A DNA stretch of 64,000 nucleotides from the IMG/VR virus record IMGVR_UViG_3300032007_000014; one strand, given 5' to 3'. The position numbers were made by a program, and so were the translations under genes. This document shows positions 11,660 through 29,807 of this stretch, piece by piece (position 1 is the stretch's first letter; each line of letters starts with the position of its first letter). The notes below the pieces were generated by a model that was not told where the DNA came from, made no database searches, and was given only the letters and a program-made list of their open reading frames with translations. The DNA comes from a virus (lineage: Duplodnaviria > Caudoviricetes).

Positions 11660-14101
11660 TTACTCGATGTAGTTTGCATCCATGAGCTTCTTACGAGCTG
11701 TCGAGTCAACACCAAGCATATCGTAGATCTTCTTCACATCACCGACACCACGAACAACAGAGAAACATCTCGTCTGTGGATCAACGCATGTATAGAAGAT
11801 GGCTTGTTCGGACATTTCGCCGAGACCTTTGAACCTGCGAATACTGTAGCAAGTATCCAGTGTTTCAAAGATGCTGTACAGCATCGTGTAGGTGCATGGT
11901 GCGTGCATGTACAGATCACTGTATTTCGTGGTCACGTACATGTTGAAGTTTCTCCAGAATCCTCTTTCATATTCTGGAAGAACATATGCCTTCATCTCGT
12001 ACTGCAGTCTCTGCAAAGGAACCGGTATTTCAATACCAGAATCGATCAAGATAATGGAATCTGATTCCTTATTGTAAACCACATCATCGATACCAAGTAC
12101 AGACTTGATCTTCTTCACATCCGGATTACCAGAAGTGATATACTCCGAACAATGCAGAAGTTGTTCCAGTATCATGGGATCGATGTTCAAGACGTTAGCC
12201 ACTTTGATGACAGTCTTGCCAATGTGTTTCACAAGATAACAGAAACTCATGAACTGTTCATCATTCAACGTGTATTCACCTTGTTTCGTCTCGATGTAGA
12301 TATCGAGTAACGTACGATAAACACAGTTGATACGAGATTGTTCAAGAGCATCTTGATCTCTCAGATACACAGCTTGATTCTTCATGATGGTTGAGTATAG
12401 AGGAGGATTCGTGATGATCACTCGTCCTTGTTCCAGAATCAATGGATTGATCCTGTAGAATGTACCAACCAACAATGCCACGATGTGACACCCGTCAGCA
12501 TCAGCATCCGTCATGATCACGATCTTGTTAAAGTTCATGTTCGACAGATCTTTGTCGTTGGGTGTGACTCCAATCAACCGTACCATGTCCTGGTAGATCA
12601 GGTTCTGATTCAGTTTCTTGTTATCACCACGGATGGCATTGAATGGTTTGCCTCTTAATTTCAAGATGGCCTGGAACCTGTCATCACGAACTGCTTTCAC
12701 ACGACCACCTGCAGAATCACCTTCTGTGATGAAGAGTTCTGTCATGGATCTGTCTGTGGATGAACAGTTGTAGAACGAACCAATATGGTTCAAGGTATAT
12801 CCAATGCCTTTCAATGACTTGGAGATTTTGTAGGCTGTCTTGGAATACTTGGCATATTCCATCGAGAGATTCTCTTTGATGGCCTCGTAGAGAGTCTCCC
12901 ATTTCGAATCCGGCACCTTATTCAGATACCTTCTCAACATCGACCGATAGAAATCACCAAACCTGCGATTCTCAAACCTTGTTTTGTCCTGACCAATGAA
13001 GTCAACTCCATGAGAATATGTTGCAAGAATATGTCCTGACAATGGAAGCTGATACTTGCTTTCAAAATAAGCGGACAATTCTTCGCCCTCCACATAATCA
13101 AGAAGATGTGTCTTCATGACAGCTTGAAGGACGGCGATGTGAGAACTCTCTGGATGTGTGATCGGGGTTCCATTGATTGCCGCAACAAATCCATTGTGAC
13201 CCGAAGCACTTCCTTCATCCAAGAATACATCGATATCGAAACCGATCGGATCGGAATCGCCCGTAGATTCATGGATCATTCTTCCAAGTTCCCAGATTGG
13301 TTTCTTGAGACCGAATTTCTTCTGAACATATTTTCTGGGACTTACGGTGCTGTCTGTCTTGAACAACACCTTTCCAGAATCATCTCCAGTTATTCGATCG
13401 AATGTCATCCAAGTAGATTTTGGTTTATCCTCAATCACTTCTTTCGGAAGCATTCCATCAATCATCTTTATTCTGACAGTTGTGTTCGTTTTGAACACAG
13501 TGTAGAATTCAGAAAGATCAATGATTTCTTGAAGCCCACCTTCCTTGAAGAAACTCTTCGTGAAGCTGACAATGGACTTGTCCGGACGGAACATAACTAT
13601 AGTACCACATGTGTCAGCATTCTTGTCGAGGGGAGTCTGTGAGATATAGGTGTCCTTAACGTCACCGAATGCAAGTCTGATATATCCAAACCCATCCATT
13701 CGTTTTGACATCACGCAGCATTCTTCACTGAATGCTGCGATCGCCTTCATTGCAATTCCATTGGTTCCTACGGAATTGCCATACGCTGACCCTTCAAACT
13801 TACCAGACGTGAACACTTTGGTGACAGCGTCAATAAGTCTGTCGATAGGTATACCACGACCATGGTCTCGAACAATGACTTGGTAATCATCTTTGTCCTT
13901 GTTGAACAGGAATGTAATCTCAATGAGATAAGACTTATTCTTATCCAGAGATTCATCGATACTGTTATCAAGGATCTCCTTGACCATGAGGACATTGCCT
14001 CGGATATTGCTAAACTGGAAACCCCACATTCCAGGGCGTTTCTTCATATGTGCAAGACCGGATATCGTCTTGATTGACGAATCATTGTAGTCTTCTCTCA
14101 T
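11660..14101 (-). CDS. gyrB: type IIA topoisomerase/gyrase subunit B (own internal start)
   Basis: MREDYNDSSIKTISGLAHMKKRPGMW N-terminus; EILDNSIDE, DHGRGIP, EGDSAGG, LRGKPFN, IMTDADADG, RFKGLGEM; AGGAG RBS 6 nt before the ATG at 14101. Confidence 0.9.
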   Translation of the reverse strand: MREDYNDSSIKTISGLAHMKKRPGMWGFQFSNIRGNVLMVKEILDNSIDESLDKNKSYLIEITFLFNKDKDDYQVIVRDHGRGIPIDRLIDAVTKVFTSGKFEGSAYGNSVGTNGIAMKAIAAFSEECCVMSKRMDGFGYIRLAFGDVKDTYISQTPLDKNADTCGTIVMFRPDKSIVSFTKSFFKEGGLQEIIDLSEFYTVFKTNTTVRIKMIDGMLPKEVIEDKPKSTWMTFDRITGDDSGKVLFKTDSTVSPRKYVQKKFGLKKPIWELGRMIHESTGDSDPIGFDIDVFLDEGSASGHNGFVAAINGTPITHPESSHIAVLQAVMKTHLLDYVEGEELSAYFESKYQLPLSGHILATYSHGVDFIGQDKTRFENRRFGDFYRSMLRRYLNKVPDSKWETLYEAIKENLSMEYAKYSKTAYKISKSLKGIGYTLNHIGSFYNCSSTDRSMTELFITEGDSAGGRVKAVRDDRFQAILKLRGKPFNAIRGDNKKLNQNLIYQDMVRLIGVTPNDKDLSNMNFNKIVIMTDADADGCHIVALLVGTFYRINPLILEQGRVIITNPPLYSTIMKNQAVYLRDQDALEQSRINCVYRTLLDIYIETKQGEYTLNDEQFMSFCYLVKHIGKTVIKVANVLNIDPMILEQLLHCSEYITSGNPDVKKIKSVLGIDDVVYNKESDSIILIDSGIEIPVPLQRLQYEMKAYVLPEYERGFWRNFNMYVTTKYSDLYMHAPCTYTMLYSIFETLDTCYSIRRFKGLGEMSEQAIFYTCVDPQTRCFSVVRGVGDVKKIYDMLGVDSTARKKLMDANYIE

Positions 14102-14959
14102 GCTCTTCTCCTGCAATTGTTTCAATTCTTCTGTTATATCTGGTGTCAGATTCATGAGTTTCACAAATTCCACATCTTTATGTTTATGAAATCTGTGATA
14201 CATGTATTTATAATCAACACCATACATTCTACACCACTCTGCAAGTGTATGAGTCTCATTGTTGTATGTGATGTTTATATTGATCGACCTGTTGTTGGAC
14301 TGATCATATATATCCACCCATCTACAATTCTCTGGACAATAATTTCCATTTGAATTGATTCGATCGATGGATAAATCTTCACGATACCCATGAGTCTCTG
14401 CCCATTCGCGAAATGTTTCGAAATCGTGCCACTCGGGACACACTCGAATACCTCTACCACCGTAACGTTCATAACATGCACGCTGTGGCTGATAGCACCG
14501 TCTTTTCATATCGTACCAAATACGATACAATCTTCCGTCAGAATGTCCGTGTGATAGATTCCTTTCGAATAAGACATCCTTGGCCTTACAACCACACGAT
14601 TGAGTCTTGTGACTCTTAAGTGCCTTAACAGATACGGTACATATCATTCCACAGTCACATTTACATCGCCACATGACTCGTCTATCGGAATTAACTCCAA
14701 CTGGCTTCAATGCAGTTAATTTACCTGATCTGAGTCCAGTGATGTCATCAATTGGTTTGAATGGTGATTTGTAAGGTGGTACGTCACAACAACATGACGT
14801 GTACTTTCCACTTATGATGTCGCTTATTTGATAAGTGACTGTTTCTCCACATTCACAAAGTGCAATTACTTGTGAATGTTCTGTAAACTCACGACCCATC
14901 TTATCGATGATTGTCAGTTTACCATATTTCTTGTTCTTGAAGTCGTTGAAATTAATCAT
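14102..14959 (-). mobile_element. HNH homing-endonuclease-like ORF fused in frame to gyrB
   Basis: Repeated GKLT..C.C.CG..SC.C zinc modules, RLYRIW..MK.RC, YGGRGI.VC.EW, SIDRINSNGNYCPENCRW; no stop codon before gyrB. Confidence 0.8.
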
Positions 14960-15555: not shown

Positions 15556-16071
15556 TCACTTGTCCCAGAGCTGAGCCAGACGTGCTTGTCTGTTCACCAG
15601 TCCTGCGACAGTCACGTACGTGACTTTTCCATTGACAATCTTCTTCTGTTTAACCCAACGCATCAGCTGGGCTTTAACATTAGAAGAGTTACCGGAATTG
15701 ATCGCCTTGATCAGATCATTGGCATTGTGGATTGCTCCACTGCCAAAATGATAGATCATATCCGCCATAACAGCCTTCTGATTGTCAGTGAGTTTGACAT
15801 TCAGTTTAAGCTGTTCAACAGATCTGAGGCAACTGTCAACATACGTCATCAAGATCTTGTCCGCTTCCGCCTTGCTCATATACTTTTTGGAAGTGTAGAG
15901 CTTGGAAGTGAAACCATATCCGATGGTTTCCTTCCCGGCAGAGCAAAGATATACATTCGATCTGAACCCCTCATTGCGAGCGATGAGATCGAACGTAATC
16001 TTCTGAAGATCACTGGCGTTGACGTTGACGATGGTCACGAGAGTGACAAGTGCGATGATGATACTTTTCAT
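15556..16071 (-). CDS. GH24 (T4-like) lysozyme with N-terminal signal peptide
   Basis: E-x8-C-x5-T triad (EGFRSNVYLCSAGKETIGYG), GLVNR motif, hydrophobic N-terminus ending VNA. Confidence 0.88.
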   Translation of the reverse strand: MKSIIIALVTLVTIVNVNASDLQKITFDLIARNEGFRSNVYLCSAGKETIGYGFTSKLYTSKKYMSKAEADKILMTYVDSCLRSVEQLKLNVKLTDNQKAVMADMIYHFGSGAIHNANDLIKAINSGNSSNVKAQLMRWVKQKKIVNGKVTYVTVAGLVNRQARLAQLWDK

Positions 16072-16115: not shown

Positions 16116-16124
16116 GTAATATAT
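16116..16124 (-). promoter_or_regulatory. early promoter core ATATATTAC upstream of the lysozyme
   Basis: Exact motif 44 nt upstream of the ATG. Confidence 0.75.
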
Positions 16125-16138
16125 AGATAAAATAAGAC

Positions 16139-16179
16139 GGCATACAACAGTGCGCTGACTAGACGCACTGTTGCATACC
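16139..16179 (-). terminator. terminator hairpin closing the ncRNA locus
   Basis: GGUAUGCAACAGUGCG/CGCACUGUUGUAUGCC; its two G-U pairs form only on the minus strand; followed by GUCUUAUUUU. Confidence 0.7.
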
Positions 16180-16203
16180 TTCACAGGAGTTGAATGAAAA
16201 AAA

Positions 16204-16392
16204 GGTTGGCCGAGAGACAGGCAATCAAAGCCAGTCAACAGGAAACGGAGCCTAAGCACGGAAGTAATGCAAGTCCCCTCAGCAAATCCACTCCGCGTGG
16301 CTTCCGGAAAGGAGCCCAAGAGTATTGTGCGAATAACACTCACTGCGAAAAGACGGAATGTTCGCATATCGCCAATATCTCTCGGTCCAACC
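16204..16392 (-). ncRNA. candidate 189-nt multibranch structured RNA
   Basis: Ends pair: GGUUGG(A)CCGAGAGAUA..GGCGAU with AUUGCC-UGUCUCUCGG-CCAACC, followed by U7; 4-5 internal hairpins. Confidence 0.6.
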
Positions 16393-16403
16393 AAAATATA
16401 ATT

Positions 16404-16711
16404 AAGTCTTCCACACGAACAAACTTGTGCAACAACTGTTAGGTGCCGGGATCACCAACTTTCATTGCAAGAACACCAGATCTTCTACTGATCCATCAAC
16501 ATGCATTACTTGTTTGAATATTGTGTGTTTGAAGTAACCCTCGCAACATCTCTACTTTCAGCATGAGTGGTCTTGTATATGAATCTGATATTCTCATTTC
16601 GTTCGCATGTAGCGCGACGGATGATCAGATGTAGATCACAAAGTTTCCCTAACTACACCACACTTTATCAATGGCGCAATTGAATGCAGTGTGATATAGT
16701 GTGGAAGACTT
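16404..16711 (-). ncRNA. candidate 308-nt pseudoknotted RNA
   Basis: Perfect 13-bp terminal stem AAGUCUUCCACAC/GUGUGGAAGACUU; long internal helices; GAAA loops on the minus strand; no ORF. Confidence 0.6.
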
Positions 16712-16839
16712 GAAATTCGTTTCTATAGCATAGACACGTATGTATCTTATTACAACGATGAAAAACACTAGGGTTTCCCACATAATATGTATAAGGTATA
16801 GGATTTGCCTATCATTTATAACATAAGGAGATATACACC

Positions 16840-17337
16840 ATGTCGATGTCACCGATTGATCAAGCCTTTCATAATTTTGAAGAGGCTATACAAGGGACTC
16901 GTTCCATCCGTCAGGGGTTGATCCATGATCTGAAGAACAAGATCAACATCGTTGAGATGGATCCCAATAATGAATCACCGAGAACTATCGAAGTGAAAGT
17001 TCAGTTGATCAACACACTTGCCGGACTTCTCAAAGATGAAGAATCTGTGATGGAGCGCAATGTGAAACTCAATCTTTCTCGCAAAGAGAGTGAAGATAAT
17101 ACACAGGTTGCTGCATCTATTGGTGCACTTCTCAAAGCCATCAATCTCAATGGGAACAATGGTGGTTCTGGAGAACCTGCTAACATGAGCGCAGCAGGTG
17201 CTGGTGTGGAAGAAGCATTCCAAAAATCCGGACAAGAAATCACAGAAGGTGAACTCCAGGAATGTCAGGGTGGTCCGACCACATCCGCTCCCGTTGATGA
17301 CAAGAAGATCCTCGAAGAACCAAAGAAAGAAGACTGA
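16840..17337 (+). CDS. hypothetical protein
   Basis: 165 aa, AAGGAG RBS. Confidence 0.8.
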   Translation: MSMSPIDQAFHNFEEAIQGTRSIRQGLIHDLKNKINIVEMDPNNESPRTIEVKVQLINTLAGLLKDEESVMERNVKLNLSRKESEDNTQVAASIGALLKAINLNGNNGGSGEPANMSAAGAGVEEAFQKSGQEITEGELQECQGGPTTSAPVDDKKILEEPKKED

Positions 17338-27844: not shown

Positions 27845-28019
27845 TGTTTAGCATTCCTTTGGTAAGAGGTATATGCTCGACTAGCATCCATCCACGGGAT
27901 GTCCCGTGGATGGATGTTTCTTTATTTGTTTATTTATATCAGGACACCATAACATAGAAGCTTATAAACAATATTCTTCATTGATCAACATCAAATTGTT
28001 AAACAAAGGAACTACCACA

Positions 28020-29807
28020 ATGAATGAGACCAATCTCAATCTTGGTTCCACTCCACTGAATCTTGGTGGAGAAAGCAAACCTGCTGAAACAGCGCAAACT
28101 GTTGTTGTTTCACAACCTGTCGAAGACAAGAAGGACGTTGCGATTCCGCAGACTCCGCAACCTGAACCAACTGTCGATCACACAGAAGATCCACAGGAAC
28201 ATGAAATGGAATCCATCGTGGACGATGATGCACCGGAGGCTCCGCTTCCTCCTGAGAAAGAAACACCTCCCACGGAGAACATCACGATCATTCCTGATCG
28301 TGAGCCTCAGCAAGTTTCTGCCAAAATACAGGTGGAAAAAGAAGCTCCGAAAAAAGAAGAACCTGTCAGTGAACCAGAAGAACAGGTCGATCCTTCTGAA
28401 GGAGAACTTCGTCGCGAATTCGCTGGTCTGTTCAACATCGAACGCCAGAAAGAAACGAAGACAAGTGAGGATGCTGGCATCGACACTATGCTAAACGCAG
28501 TGTCAACTGGAACAAAAGAGGACAATGACAAAGTCATGGATCAGTTCTCTTCGGATGCCGCTCTGCGTAAAGCAGTCGCTGTTCCAGGATCATTCATGCA
28601 GATCCTGTCTGAAGTGATCCAGTACGGGTGGGGAAGTTCCACCATTCAGGCGGATCTTCGTGAGATCCTTGAACACAGCGAGACCTACAAGAAACTAACA
28701 AAACAACCGGATCTCGTTCGTGACTTCTTCACACATGGTGCCAAGTACAACAGCGATGCTCCGACATCTCTGTCTGGAAAGAAGGCACGCATTGCTGTCA
28801 TGGCTCGTATGCGCGGACTTCAGAAAGTCAATTTCCTGAATTCCGGATTCTATGTGATTCTTCGTGCTCCTCAGATGGCGGAACTCCAGGAGTTTGCTTC
28901 TTCTGTCGAAATCGAAGCCACAGAGCTCGGTCACGAACTCGGCAATCATTTCGGTCTGGTGACAGATGTATTCATCAAAGAGAAGTTCATCGAACTCCTC
29001 CAGGATTACAATCTCATCGTGGATTCGAACTTCGCCGACATCAATAAGAAAGGAGCTCTTGCTGAGAACCTTTCGTACTTCGACTATGATGTCGCAATGT
29101 GGGCGTTGGTCAGTCTGATGTATCGCAAGGGTCTTCACACGAAGATTGCTTGCACGCATTGCAAGACTGTGTCGCCGGATGTGTTGATTGACGTTCTTTC
29201 CACCAAGTGGATCAACAATGATCTGTACACGGAAGAGATGATCAACTACTGGTCTCAGAAGACCGATGAGAATGGTCGTCCTGTCATGCGTCAGGTCAAG
29301 GATCTGCAGAACTACCGGAACAACATCGTGAACAGAACCAAGCGCATCATCCAGAAACAGGATGATTACACTCTGGCAATCACGCTCCGCGATCCCACAA
29401 TGGCGAAGTTCATTTCTGTCGGAACGAATCTCGTCAATGATCTGAACAAGACACTGCATGGTCCTTCCAGACTGCGTGAAGATCAGATCAAGATGAAGAG
29501 TATCATCCATCTGTTCCAGATGTACGCACCGTGGGTTGCGAAGATCGAGTTCCTGGATGACAACGGCAAGGTCATGTTCGAAACCGATGACACGCAGTCG
29601 ATCATGGATGCTCTGGATATCAGCAACCAGAAGTACCACGATCTGCTCACGAACATCAGTGAGTACATCTCTGAAGCCAAGATCAACCACATCGGAACCT
29701 TCACGATCGAATGTCCGAATTGCGGCGCCAAGCCCGAGACGAAGTTGGACAACTTCTATCCGCTTGATGTCGAGACAATTTTTTTCGCCCTGTCCTGCCG
29801 GCCATAG
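28020..29807 (+). CDS. baseplate hub/tail assembly chaperone-like protein (T4 gp26-like pattern, two CxxC pairs)
   Basis: Start MNETN with AAGGA RBS; VILRAP, CTHC, ITLRDPT, IECPNCG and terminal FF. Confidence 0.6.
   Translation: MNETNLNLGSTPLNLGGESKPAETAQTVVVSQPVEDKKDVAIPQTPQPEPTVDHTEDPQEHEMESIVDDDAPEAPLPPEKETPPTENITIIPDREPQQVSAKIQVEKEAPKKEEPVSEPEEQVDPSEGELRREFAGLFNIERQKETKTSEDAGIDTMLNAVSTGTKEDNDKVMDQFSSDAALRKAVAVPGSFMQILSEVIQYGWGSSTIQADLREILEHSETYKKLTKQPDLVRDFFTHGAKYNSDAPTSLSGKKARIAVMARMRGLQKVNFLNSGFYVILRAPQMAELQEFASSVEIEATELGHELGNHFGLVTDVFIKEKFIELLQDYNLIVDSNFADINKKGALAENLSYFDYDVAMWALVSLMYRKGLHTKIACTHCKTVSPDVLIDVLSTKWINNDLYTEEMINYWSQKTDENGRPVMRQVKDLQNYRNNIVNRTKRIIQKQDDYTLAITLRDPTMAKFISVGTNLVNDLNKTLHGPSRLREDQIKMKSIIHLFQMYAPWVAKIEFLDDNGKVMFETDDTQSIMDALDISNQKYHDLLTNISEYISEAKINHIGTFTIECPNCGAKPETKLDNFYPLDVETIFFALSCRP

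Follow-up and report, generated by a model that had tools for sequence, protein, structure and literature searches.

A conserved structured non-coding RNA in a putative late transcription cassette of uncultured phiKZ-like jumbo phages

Introduction

Non-coding RNAs of phiKZ-like jumbo phages take up one sentence in a 2026 review (PMC13282480). A 308-nt stretch between two divergent genes of such a phage raised the question of what a large intergenic RNA might do there. The stretch lies in a 64,000-nucleotide piece of phage DNA (IMG/VR record IMGVR_UViG_3300032007_000014), the whole of which is called the window here. The initial annotation drew on its minus strand a closing stem, a first hairpin and two long-range helices in pseudoknotted order, and proposed either a highly diverged RNase P-like ribozyme or a new class of structured non-coding RNA. 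We asked whether the stretch specifies a real RNA, hereafter RNA1, whether the drawn helices are kept in related phages, and which function its conserved parts would suit.

Results

The phage and the RNA1 locus

The window (44% GC) is part of an uncultured phiKZ-like jumbo phage of the ruminant gut. We classed the phage as phiKZ-like because it encodes a multisubunit RNA-polymerase subunit (phrog_2962, E=2e-92) and tubulin, and because related phages measure 235-268 kb. A split-type DNA polymerase, topoisomerase subunits and five tRNAs are also encoded, and the closest cultured relatives are phiKZ-like jumbo phages at <32% identity. Genes identical to the neighbours of RNA1 were found as well on contigs of up to 238 kb. 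Where a source was recorded, the sequencing runs holding the window came from bovine, sheep or unspecified gut.

RNA1 occupies the minus strand between the divergent gene of a 165-aa protein and the phage lysozyme (endolysin) gene (Table 1), with genes for lysozyme, topoisomerase, an RNA polymerase subunit and RNase H as the neighbours of the locus. Two other genes deserve a remark. The gene of the topoisomerase II large subunit (11660-14959, minus strand) has an HNH endonuclease region within its first 290 residues, and its orthologues in the related loci L009 and L011 are shorter by about 280 aa, a difference that suggests a mobile insertion. Near the DNA polymerase gene, a 633-aa protein (27906-29807, plus strand) with no Pfam match would fit a nuclear shell protein (chimallin) by its size and place.

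Table 1. Features of the RNA1 cassette and its flanking genes in the window
Feature	Position	Strand	Evidence or remark
165-aa helical-hairpin protein gene	16840-17337	+	Divergent neighbour in all loci examined; weak small-terminase lead
Palindromic CATA-N-TATG, putative back-to-back phiKZ-type late promoters	16781-16789	both	Motif match in related loci
Additional TATG 18 nt ahead of the closing stem, possible alternative start	16729-16732	-	Present in most close homologues, not in L011
RNA1, structured ncRNA, 308 nt (complete homologues 229-308 nt)	16404-16711	-	Fold, homologues, model, descriptor, RNA-library contigs
Closing stem P1, 5' strand (partner 16404-16414)	16701-16711	-	Almost constant in the close homologues and in L032; L040 and L045 have it shifted or replaced
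Hairpin A, CGCC loop at 16673-16676, stem freely variable	16652-16700	-	Loop exposure, strand swaps, double changes
Connecting helix P2, 5' strand (partner 16417-16429), the P4-like helix of the initial annotation	16637-16649	-	Nested reading
Small hairpin C	16603-16617	-	Constant in the close group; replaced in the distant homologues
Long irregular arm D, RAGYAG at 16552-16557, terminal loop GGUUAY at 16534-16539	16469-16595	-	Motifs in 8/8 homologues
Hairpin E, GCAA/UUGC base, includes the locally paired CCUAAC strand	16428-16469	-
RNA2, second closed RNA (135-342 nt in homologues)	16204-16392	-	After a U-rich spacer; absent in L032
CUCCUGU (anti-Shine-Dalgarno-like), then long perfect hairpin and U-rich tail	16139-16189	-	Probable cassette terminator
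TATATTAC box, probable early promoter of the endolysin gene	16116-16123	-	Downstream of the terminator
Phage lysozyme (endolysin) gene	15556-16071	-	PF00959 E=2e-23; phrog_7

RNA1 as a conserved non-coding RNA

The description of the stretch as free of open reading frames held up: just two short frames of at least 40 aa were found, overlapping its ends, and the gene caller placed none inside it on related contigs. RNA1 has a folding energy of -99.8 kcal/mol (z = -5.08), with 0/100 shuffles as good, and its minus strand is more stable than the plus strand by 20 kcal. The z-scores of all eight homologues described below range from -2.8 to -7.7.

RNA sequencing, one of the checks suggested in the initial annotation, gave a partial answer. 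Part of the RNA1 region is contained in eighteen RNA runs, and contigs from ruminant RNA libraries of four independent studies cover RNA1; these contigs give neither strand, ends nor level, and DNA carry-over is possible. RNA2, the second closed RNA of the locus, is likewise covered in four studies, and single contigs bridge RNA1 and RNA2 in two (16257-16699 and 16208-16702). No contig runs across about 16703-16863 and those of three studies end at 16199-16214, gaps that are unusable as evidence; the same applies to contig depth, which in one run was 107 over RNA1 and 12-15 on adjacent contigs.

Homologues were reached by walking in from the neighbouring proteins. RNA1 was found at the same site, between the 165-aa gene and the endolysin gene, in eight distinct phage lineages, across which the neighbouring RNA-polymerase subunit is 45-100% identical. 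Near-identical phages share 95-98% of the RNA1 sequence and L009, L011 and L012 about 60-64%, the arms of these close homologues being rebuilt from different sequence. A covariance model made from this close group (near-identical phages plus L009, L011 and L012) detected L032 unaided (E=4e-10). The sister clade, at about 45% polymerase identity, comprises L040, L045 and the truncated L094/L095, and has RNAs at the same site with the same motif order. The model gave no significant score on L040 or L095 (3.9 bits for L040, although its ends are exact), and the proposed homology of L040, L045 and L095 to RNA1 rests on position and motif order.

A three-motif descriptor with spacing, fitted after L040, L045 and L095 had been seen, gave 24 matches in 2.55 Mb of loci, all at the RNA1 site, against about 1.2 expected. 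With a looser descriptor, five whole records yielded two extra sites, one in the L040 genome and one in the L045 genome; the reversed control gave 2 matches. A third, larger clade keeps the promoter, a hairpin whose loop is YGCC in most members, a long arm and the terminal hairpin, but does not keep the full RNA1. Closed or multi-hairpin RNAs at this locus in the third clade differ from one another (L042 13081-13222; L092 12870-13190; L033 13002-13290), and the RNAs of that clade may be reduced relatives or separate families.

Scans of the window, L032 and L040 against Rfam 15, at the gathering score and at E <= 10, gave no match, so that neither RNase P nor a known non-catalytic family was recovered; ROOL, GOLLD, OLE, raiA, 6S, SRP and tmRNA models were without a match in the window and the homologues, and ARAGORN found no tmRNA in the window. 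BLAST of RNA1 and of its L040 homologue against cultured phages returned nothing meaningful, and RNA1 has no sequence similarity to cultured phage records. Exact patterns searched in IMG/VR and GTDB gave chance matches only, 15 of which were tested and rejected by the covariance model. In GTDB, no genome carried the conserved 3' block with surroundings that matched, and hence this search gave no cellular homologue and no clue to the host. Our literature search found no paper describing RNA1; the supplement of a catalogue of viral structured RNAs (PMC10690425) lay outside that search and may list it. By eye we also noted likenesses to T-box and cobalamin leaders, tRNA D-loops, 5S loop E and the 16S 3' end, all of which we discarded as chance agreements between short words. 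The octamer AUGCGAAC, present in RNA1, RNA2 and two relatives, has 6 copies in the window and no clear enrichment.

Taken as a whole, we regard RNA1 as almost certainly a real conserved non-coding RNA. It is an uncatalogued, new family of phage structured RNA, and the second proposal of the initial annotation, a new structured class, finds support in the homologues, the helix-level covariation, the late promoter and the presence in RNA libraries.

The fold of RNA1

Every strand named in the initial annotation was found where it had been placed. The eight homologues, however, share a plan that differs from the pseudoknotted drawing: P1 and hairpin A are followed by a connecting helix, which in turn surrounds two small hairpins, arm D and, in most cases, hairpin E. 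The fold of RNA1 is nested, with closing stem P1, the CGCC-loop hairpin A, the connecting helix and a junction from which the long GGUUAY-tipped arm extends. Fixed across the homologues are CGCC in loop A, RAGYAG in arm D, GGUUAY at the arm D tip and most of P1, while the stems turn over.

Covariation over all eight homologues was assessed by strand swapping. For hairpin A, the native partner was best in 8/8 (mean -14.7 vs -4.1 kcal), and for arm D in 7/8 (mean -31.7 vs -14.2 kcal). Homologues collected from related phages, as the initial annotation had advised, gave helix-level covariation of these two arms in a family of eight lineages. Within the close group, RNAalifold found six pairs with double changes, and hairpin A has 4 such pairs. 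The two conserved loops are predicted to be exposed: CGCC of loop A has an unpaired probability of 0.91-1.0 in 8/8 homologues, and GGUUAY at the arm D tip one of 0.77-0.94 in seven and 0.43 in L009.

Several of the helices first drawn were retained in part. The complementarity of the 13-bp closing stem exists at the termini, but C16699 was used twice, being also part of the 11-bp first hairpin, and the homologues keep an 11-bp stem. That first hairpin is present where it was drawn, although it shares C16699 with the 13-bp stem and G16653 with the GUUAGG helix. The AAAC-U-UUGUG/CACAA-GUUU helix is plausible, with 97% of cells paired in the close homologues, two L009 changes that fit the pairing and a cost of 0.5-3.5 kcal when forced, but it is nested and its bulged U is not kept. 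We placed it as the nested connecting helix P2 by analogy with the helix found after hairpin A in L040, L045 and L095. A rival pairing of the hairpin C strand (16598-16606) with the same 3' segment (16415-16423) was slightly favoured over P2 by RNAfold, and the core of the close group may therefore adopt two conformers of near-equal folding energy.

Other parts of the drawing were lost in the comparison. The P2-like pseudoknot GUUAGG/CCUAAC has both strands in the window and no conservation: it is worth -7.9 kcal in the window, against -3.2 in L009, -4.7 in L011 and -1.4 in L012, forcing it costs 6.3 kcal, and it has no counterpart in the four distant homologues. The CCUAAC strand is predicted to pair instead within hairpin E, with a probability of 0.95-1.0 in the window, L009, L011 and L012. 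In L009 and L011, 5 bp of the pseudoknot are still formable with one double change, which 230/500 shuffles equal, and the pairing could still form as an alternative in part of the close group. Pair counts for the GUUAGG/CCUAAC and P4-like helices were no better than those of shuffles. In the 95%-identical L002, the long GAUCU..GAUCAUC helix breaks, its 3' strand being altered and its 5' strand unaltered; the helix that is conserved is arm D. Nor does the GAAA-tetraloop hairpin stay intact in L011 and L032, in which the GCAA/UUGC pairing is retained.

Promoter and cassette organization

An exact or one-off copy of the CATA-N-TATG palindrome lies upstream of RNA1 in 14 of 15 related loci. The late promoter of phiKZ is TATG, with the G as +1 (PMC4666361), which would place the start of the RNA cassette at 16781 (minus strand) and that of the 165-aa gene at 16789 (plus strand). 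The G of TATG coincides with the first base of P1 in L040 and L045; this suggests that transcription yields the closed RNA itself and that the other face of the palindrome serves the 165-aa gene. In the L012 lineage, a 193-aa gene (L012 6724-7305) is inserted between the palindrome and the 165-aa gene.

RNA2 has a long closing stem of completely different sequence in each of six lineages and a variable interior. Strand swapping found the native partner best in 6/6, at -18 to -30 vs -1 to -17 kcal. A G-rich loop occurs in the RNA2 interior of the window, L040 and L045. The CUCCUGU element and the perfect hairpin after it form the probable terminator of the cassette and may also make a small anti-Shine-Dalgarno RNA of their own; the loop mostly contains GUC, and CUCC plus hairpin occurs in all three clades, including L032 despite its different following gene. 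Between the cassette and the lysozyme gene, L032 has an HNH gene (13494-14069) preceded by a tRNA-like 3' end, and RNA2 is missing. Beyond the terminator lies the TATATTAC box, which we take to be the phiKZ early promoter motif. The window holds 12 copies of it between 528 and 63712, every one of them on the minus strand, in agreement with phiKZ-like early promoters confined to one strand.

Discussion

A proposed scaffold or decoy held by a loop-loop contact

Stems that turn over around two distant fixed loops and one fixed arm motif argue for an RNA conserved in shape and surface, rather than for an enzyme or an antisense regulator. We give an even chance to the reading that RNA1 is a late, non-catalytic scaffold or decoy held by a GCC/GGU contact between the loops of hairpin A and arm D. 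RNA1 would then be the first module of a late non-coding cassette that also contains RNA2 and the terminator hairpin. The phage's own RNA polymerase would start the cassette at the TATG shared back-to-back with the 165-aa gene, and processing would yield the separate RNAs, with P1 protecting the ends of RNA1. The CGCC and GGUUAY loops most likely dock by GCC/GGU pairing, either inside a single molecule or from copy to copy, and the compact body would bind a protein partner late in infection. GCC/GGU pairing is possible in 8/8 homologues, with a fourth pair in the three whose next base is not A, and the loops of L033 are complementary over 5 bp. No compensatory change inside GCC/GGU occurs among the eight homologues; a contact of three pairs is weak, and either loop could bind something else.

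A possible packaging RNA

A three-way junction with two complementary loops recalls the phi29 pRNA, which forms multimers by interlocking its left and right loops (PMC2366019). By analogy, RNA1 could be a packaging or assembly RNA whose loops link copies into a ring, with the 165-aa neighbour, which shares the late promoter, as small terminase. We consider this unlikely. The 165-aa protein, a candidate small terminase, is a two-helix hairpin with weak leads to the T4-type small terminase (Atlas PF11053 score 0.88; Foldseek to 3TXS/3TXQ at probability 0.75-0.84, but with E > 1). HHalign to T4 gp16, however, gave a probability of 0.4%; the protein aligns to gp16 over a short length without significance; PF11053 was among the top hits of 0 members of the protein's 81-sequence family; and generic helical hairpins rank as high as the T4-type terminase. 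The protein belongs to a viral family of 365 representatives with no Pfam or PHROG name, and it is kept in the third clade, where RNA1 is much reduced. Moreover, pRNA has been described from phi29-like phages alone (PMC11476376), and the phage of the window has phiKZ-like features instead. The pRNA and RNA1 are alike as phage-encoded non-catalytic RNAs with a three-way junction and two possibly interlocking loops, but the former has 174 nt and serves small phi29-like phages, whereas RNA1 has 229-308 nt in phiKZ-like phages of 235-265 kb, a further multi-way junction and a loop pairing that is predicted.

Possible decoy, leader and antisense functions

Rather improbable, in our estimate, is a tRNA or translation decoy or adaptor, in which the GGU of arm D would capture the RCCA ends of tRNAs and loop A would mimic such an end. 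GGU is exposed in 8/8 homologues, loop A reads GCCA in 5/8, five CCA-ending phage tRNAs lie 5-6 kb from RNA1, and RCCA-GGU pairing is established for RNase P L15 (PMC4919922). The match is of three bases only, however; the last base of loop A is C or U in three of the homologues, and no T-loop platform motif was recognised.

We find it equally hard to favour a cis-acting leader that would control the endolysin through read-through and the anti-Shine-Dalgarno CUCCU. In most loci RNA1 does precede the lysozyme gene, and CUCCUGU can pair with the lysozyme ribosome-binding site, but a terminator-like hairpin and the separate TATATTAC promoter intervene. In L032, where a homing-endonuclease gene stands in between, RNA1 and CUCCUGU are kept all the same, and such a leader would account for the last hairpin, not for RNA1.

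Many bacterial sRNAs expose a short C-rich loop. RNA1 has one too, and could act in trans on mRNAs of the phage or the host, as an antisense RNA that starts to pair at its loops. That this is its function seems quite doubtful to us: across 13 orthologous neighbouring genes (about 20 kb), neither loop favours start regions of its own phage over those of other phages.

RNase P and other known RNAs

It is very improbable that RNA1 is a highly diverged RNase P-like ribozyme that would mature the phage tRNAs. RNA1 resembles RNase P RNA (RF00010 and related; PMC4919922) in its length of about 300 nt, terminal closing stem and exposed GGU, and in an early hairpin after which come a GGAAA-like run rich in purines and a long-range helix. 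GGGAAAC-U-UUGUG of the close group has a P4-like 3+bulge+5 geometry after a hairpin and inside the closing stem; GCAA recalls J5/15, and the tRNA cluster is nearby.

RNase P has five conserved regions, of which CR-I and CR-V, in P4, carry 11 of the 21 universal nucleotides, and A50, G51 and U52 bind metal (PMC4919922). The A-G before the bulged U that marks CR-I is absent at that position in 8/8 homologues; the window reads A-C-U, with C as the G51 equivalent. The CR-V pattern was found in 0/8 and the CR-IV pattern in 1/8, at a non-equivalent place. The bulged U, present in the window and L012 types, is a symmetric U-U mismatch in L009 and L011, and the GGGAAAC block occurs in 4/8, being missing or of other sequence in L032, L040, L045 and L095. 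The P2-like strand follows the first hairpin instead of preceding it, and neither P2 nor a pseudoknot is conserved. Of the parts that are conserved, RAGYAG and GGUUAY of arm D fit by eye no CR-II/CR-III T-loop words, and the GGU exposed in 8/8 sits at the arm D tip, outside a P15 context. No RNase P model matched at E <= 10 in the window, L032 or L040, and RF00010 was without a hit in three related genomes, with 11/14 controls positive.

RNA1 thus differs from RNase P RNA in being nested, in lacking CR-I, CR-IV, CR-V, a conserved bulged U and a conserved P2/P4 pseudoknot, in matching no model, and in having its P4-like block as a replaceable part. The RNase P reading of the initial annotation is unsupported because the most conserved part of RNase P (PMC4919922) is among the parts that RNA1 replaces: the block is absent in half of the homologues, in addition to the missing regions, the lost bulge and the negative Rfam result.

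A retron ncRNA was not supported: the terminal inverted repeat is present (P1), but a match to the reverse transcriptase family PF00078 is missing from three near-complete related genomes, two of them with a full RNA1.

The orphan RNAs ROOL, GOLLD, OLE and raiA are often carried by phages, GOLLD also near tRNA genes. RNA1 is like ROOL (RF03087), GOLLD (RF01998), OLE and raiA in being intergenic, with its own promoter and terminator, a fixed shape and variable stems. It is smaller than ROOL and GOLLD, and differs from all four in having no Rfam match or proven pseudoknots, in being found so far in one clade of rumen jumbo phages and in belonging to a cassette of several RNAs. The phiKZ ncRNA candidates (PMC10914365) are likewise discrete non-coding transcripts of large lytic phages; they are mostly UTR-derived, whereas RNA1 follows a late promoter of its own and persists over deep branches of the phages.

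Significance for jumbo-phage biology

The importance of RNA1 would be much greater if the packaging or the catalytic reading were true, the catalytic one being unlikely on the evidence. A packaging function would mean a pRNA-like role outside the phi29 family, and a multimer-forming RNA in the DNA packaging or virion assembly of jumbo phages. A series of closed RNAs in one cassette, with closing stems that change freely, is unusual in itself. With its defined ends, promoter, covarying fold and two fixed loops, RNA1 can be tested directly with no need for a phage culture. So far the RNA biology of phiKZ-like jumbo phages has hardly been charted, and RNA1 adds to it an uncatalogued family that spans deep branches of the rumen clade.
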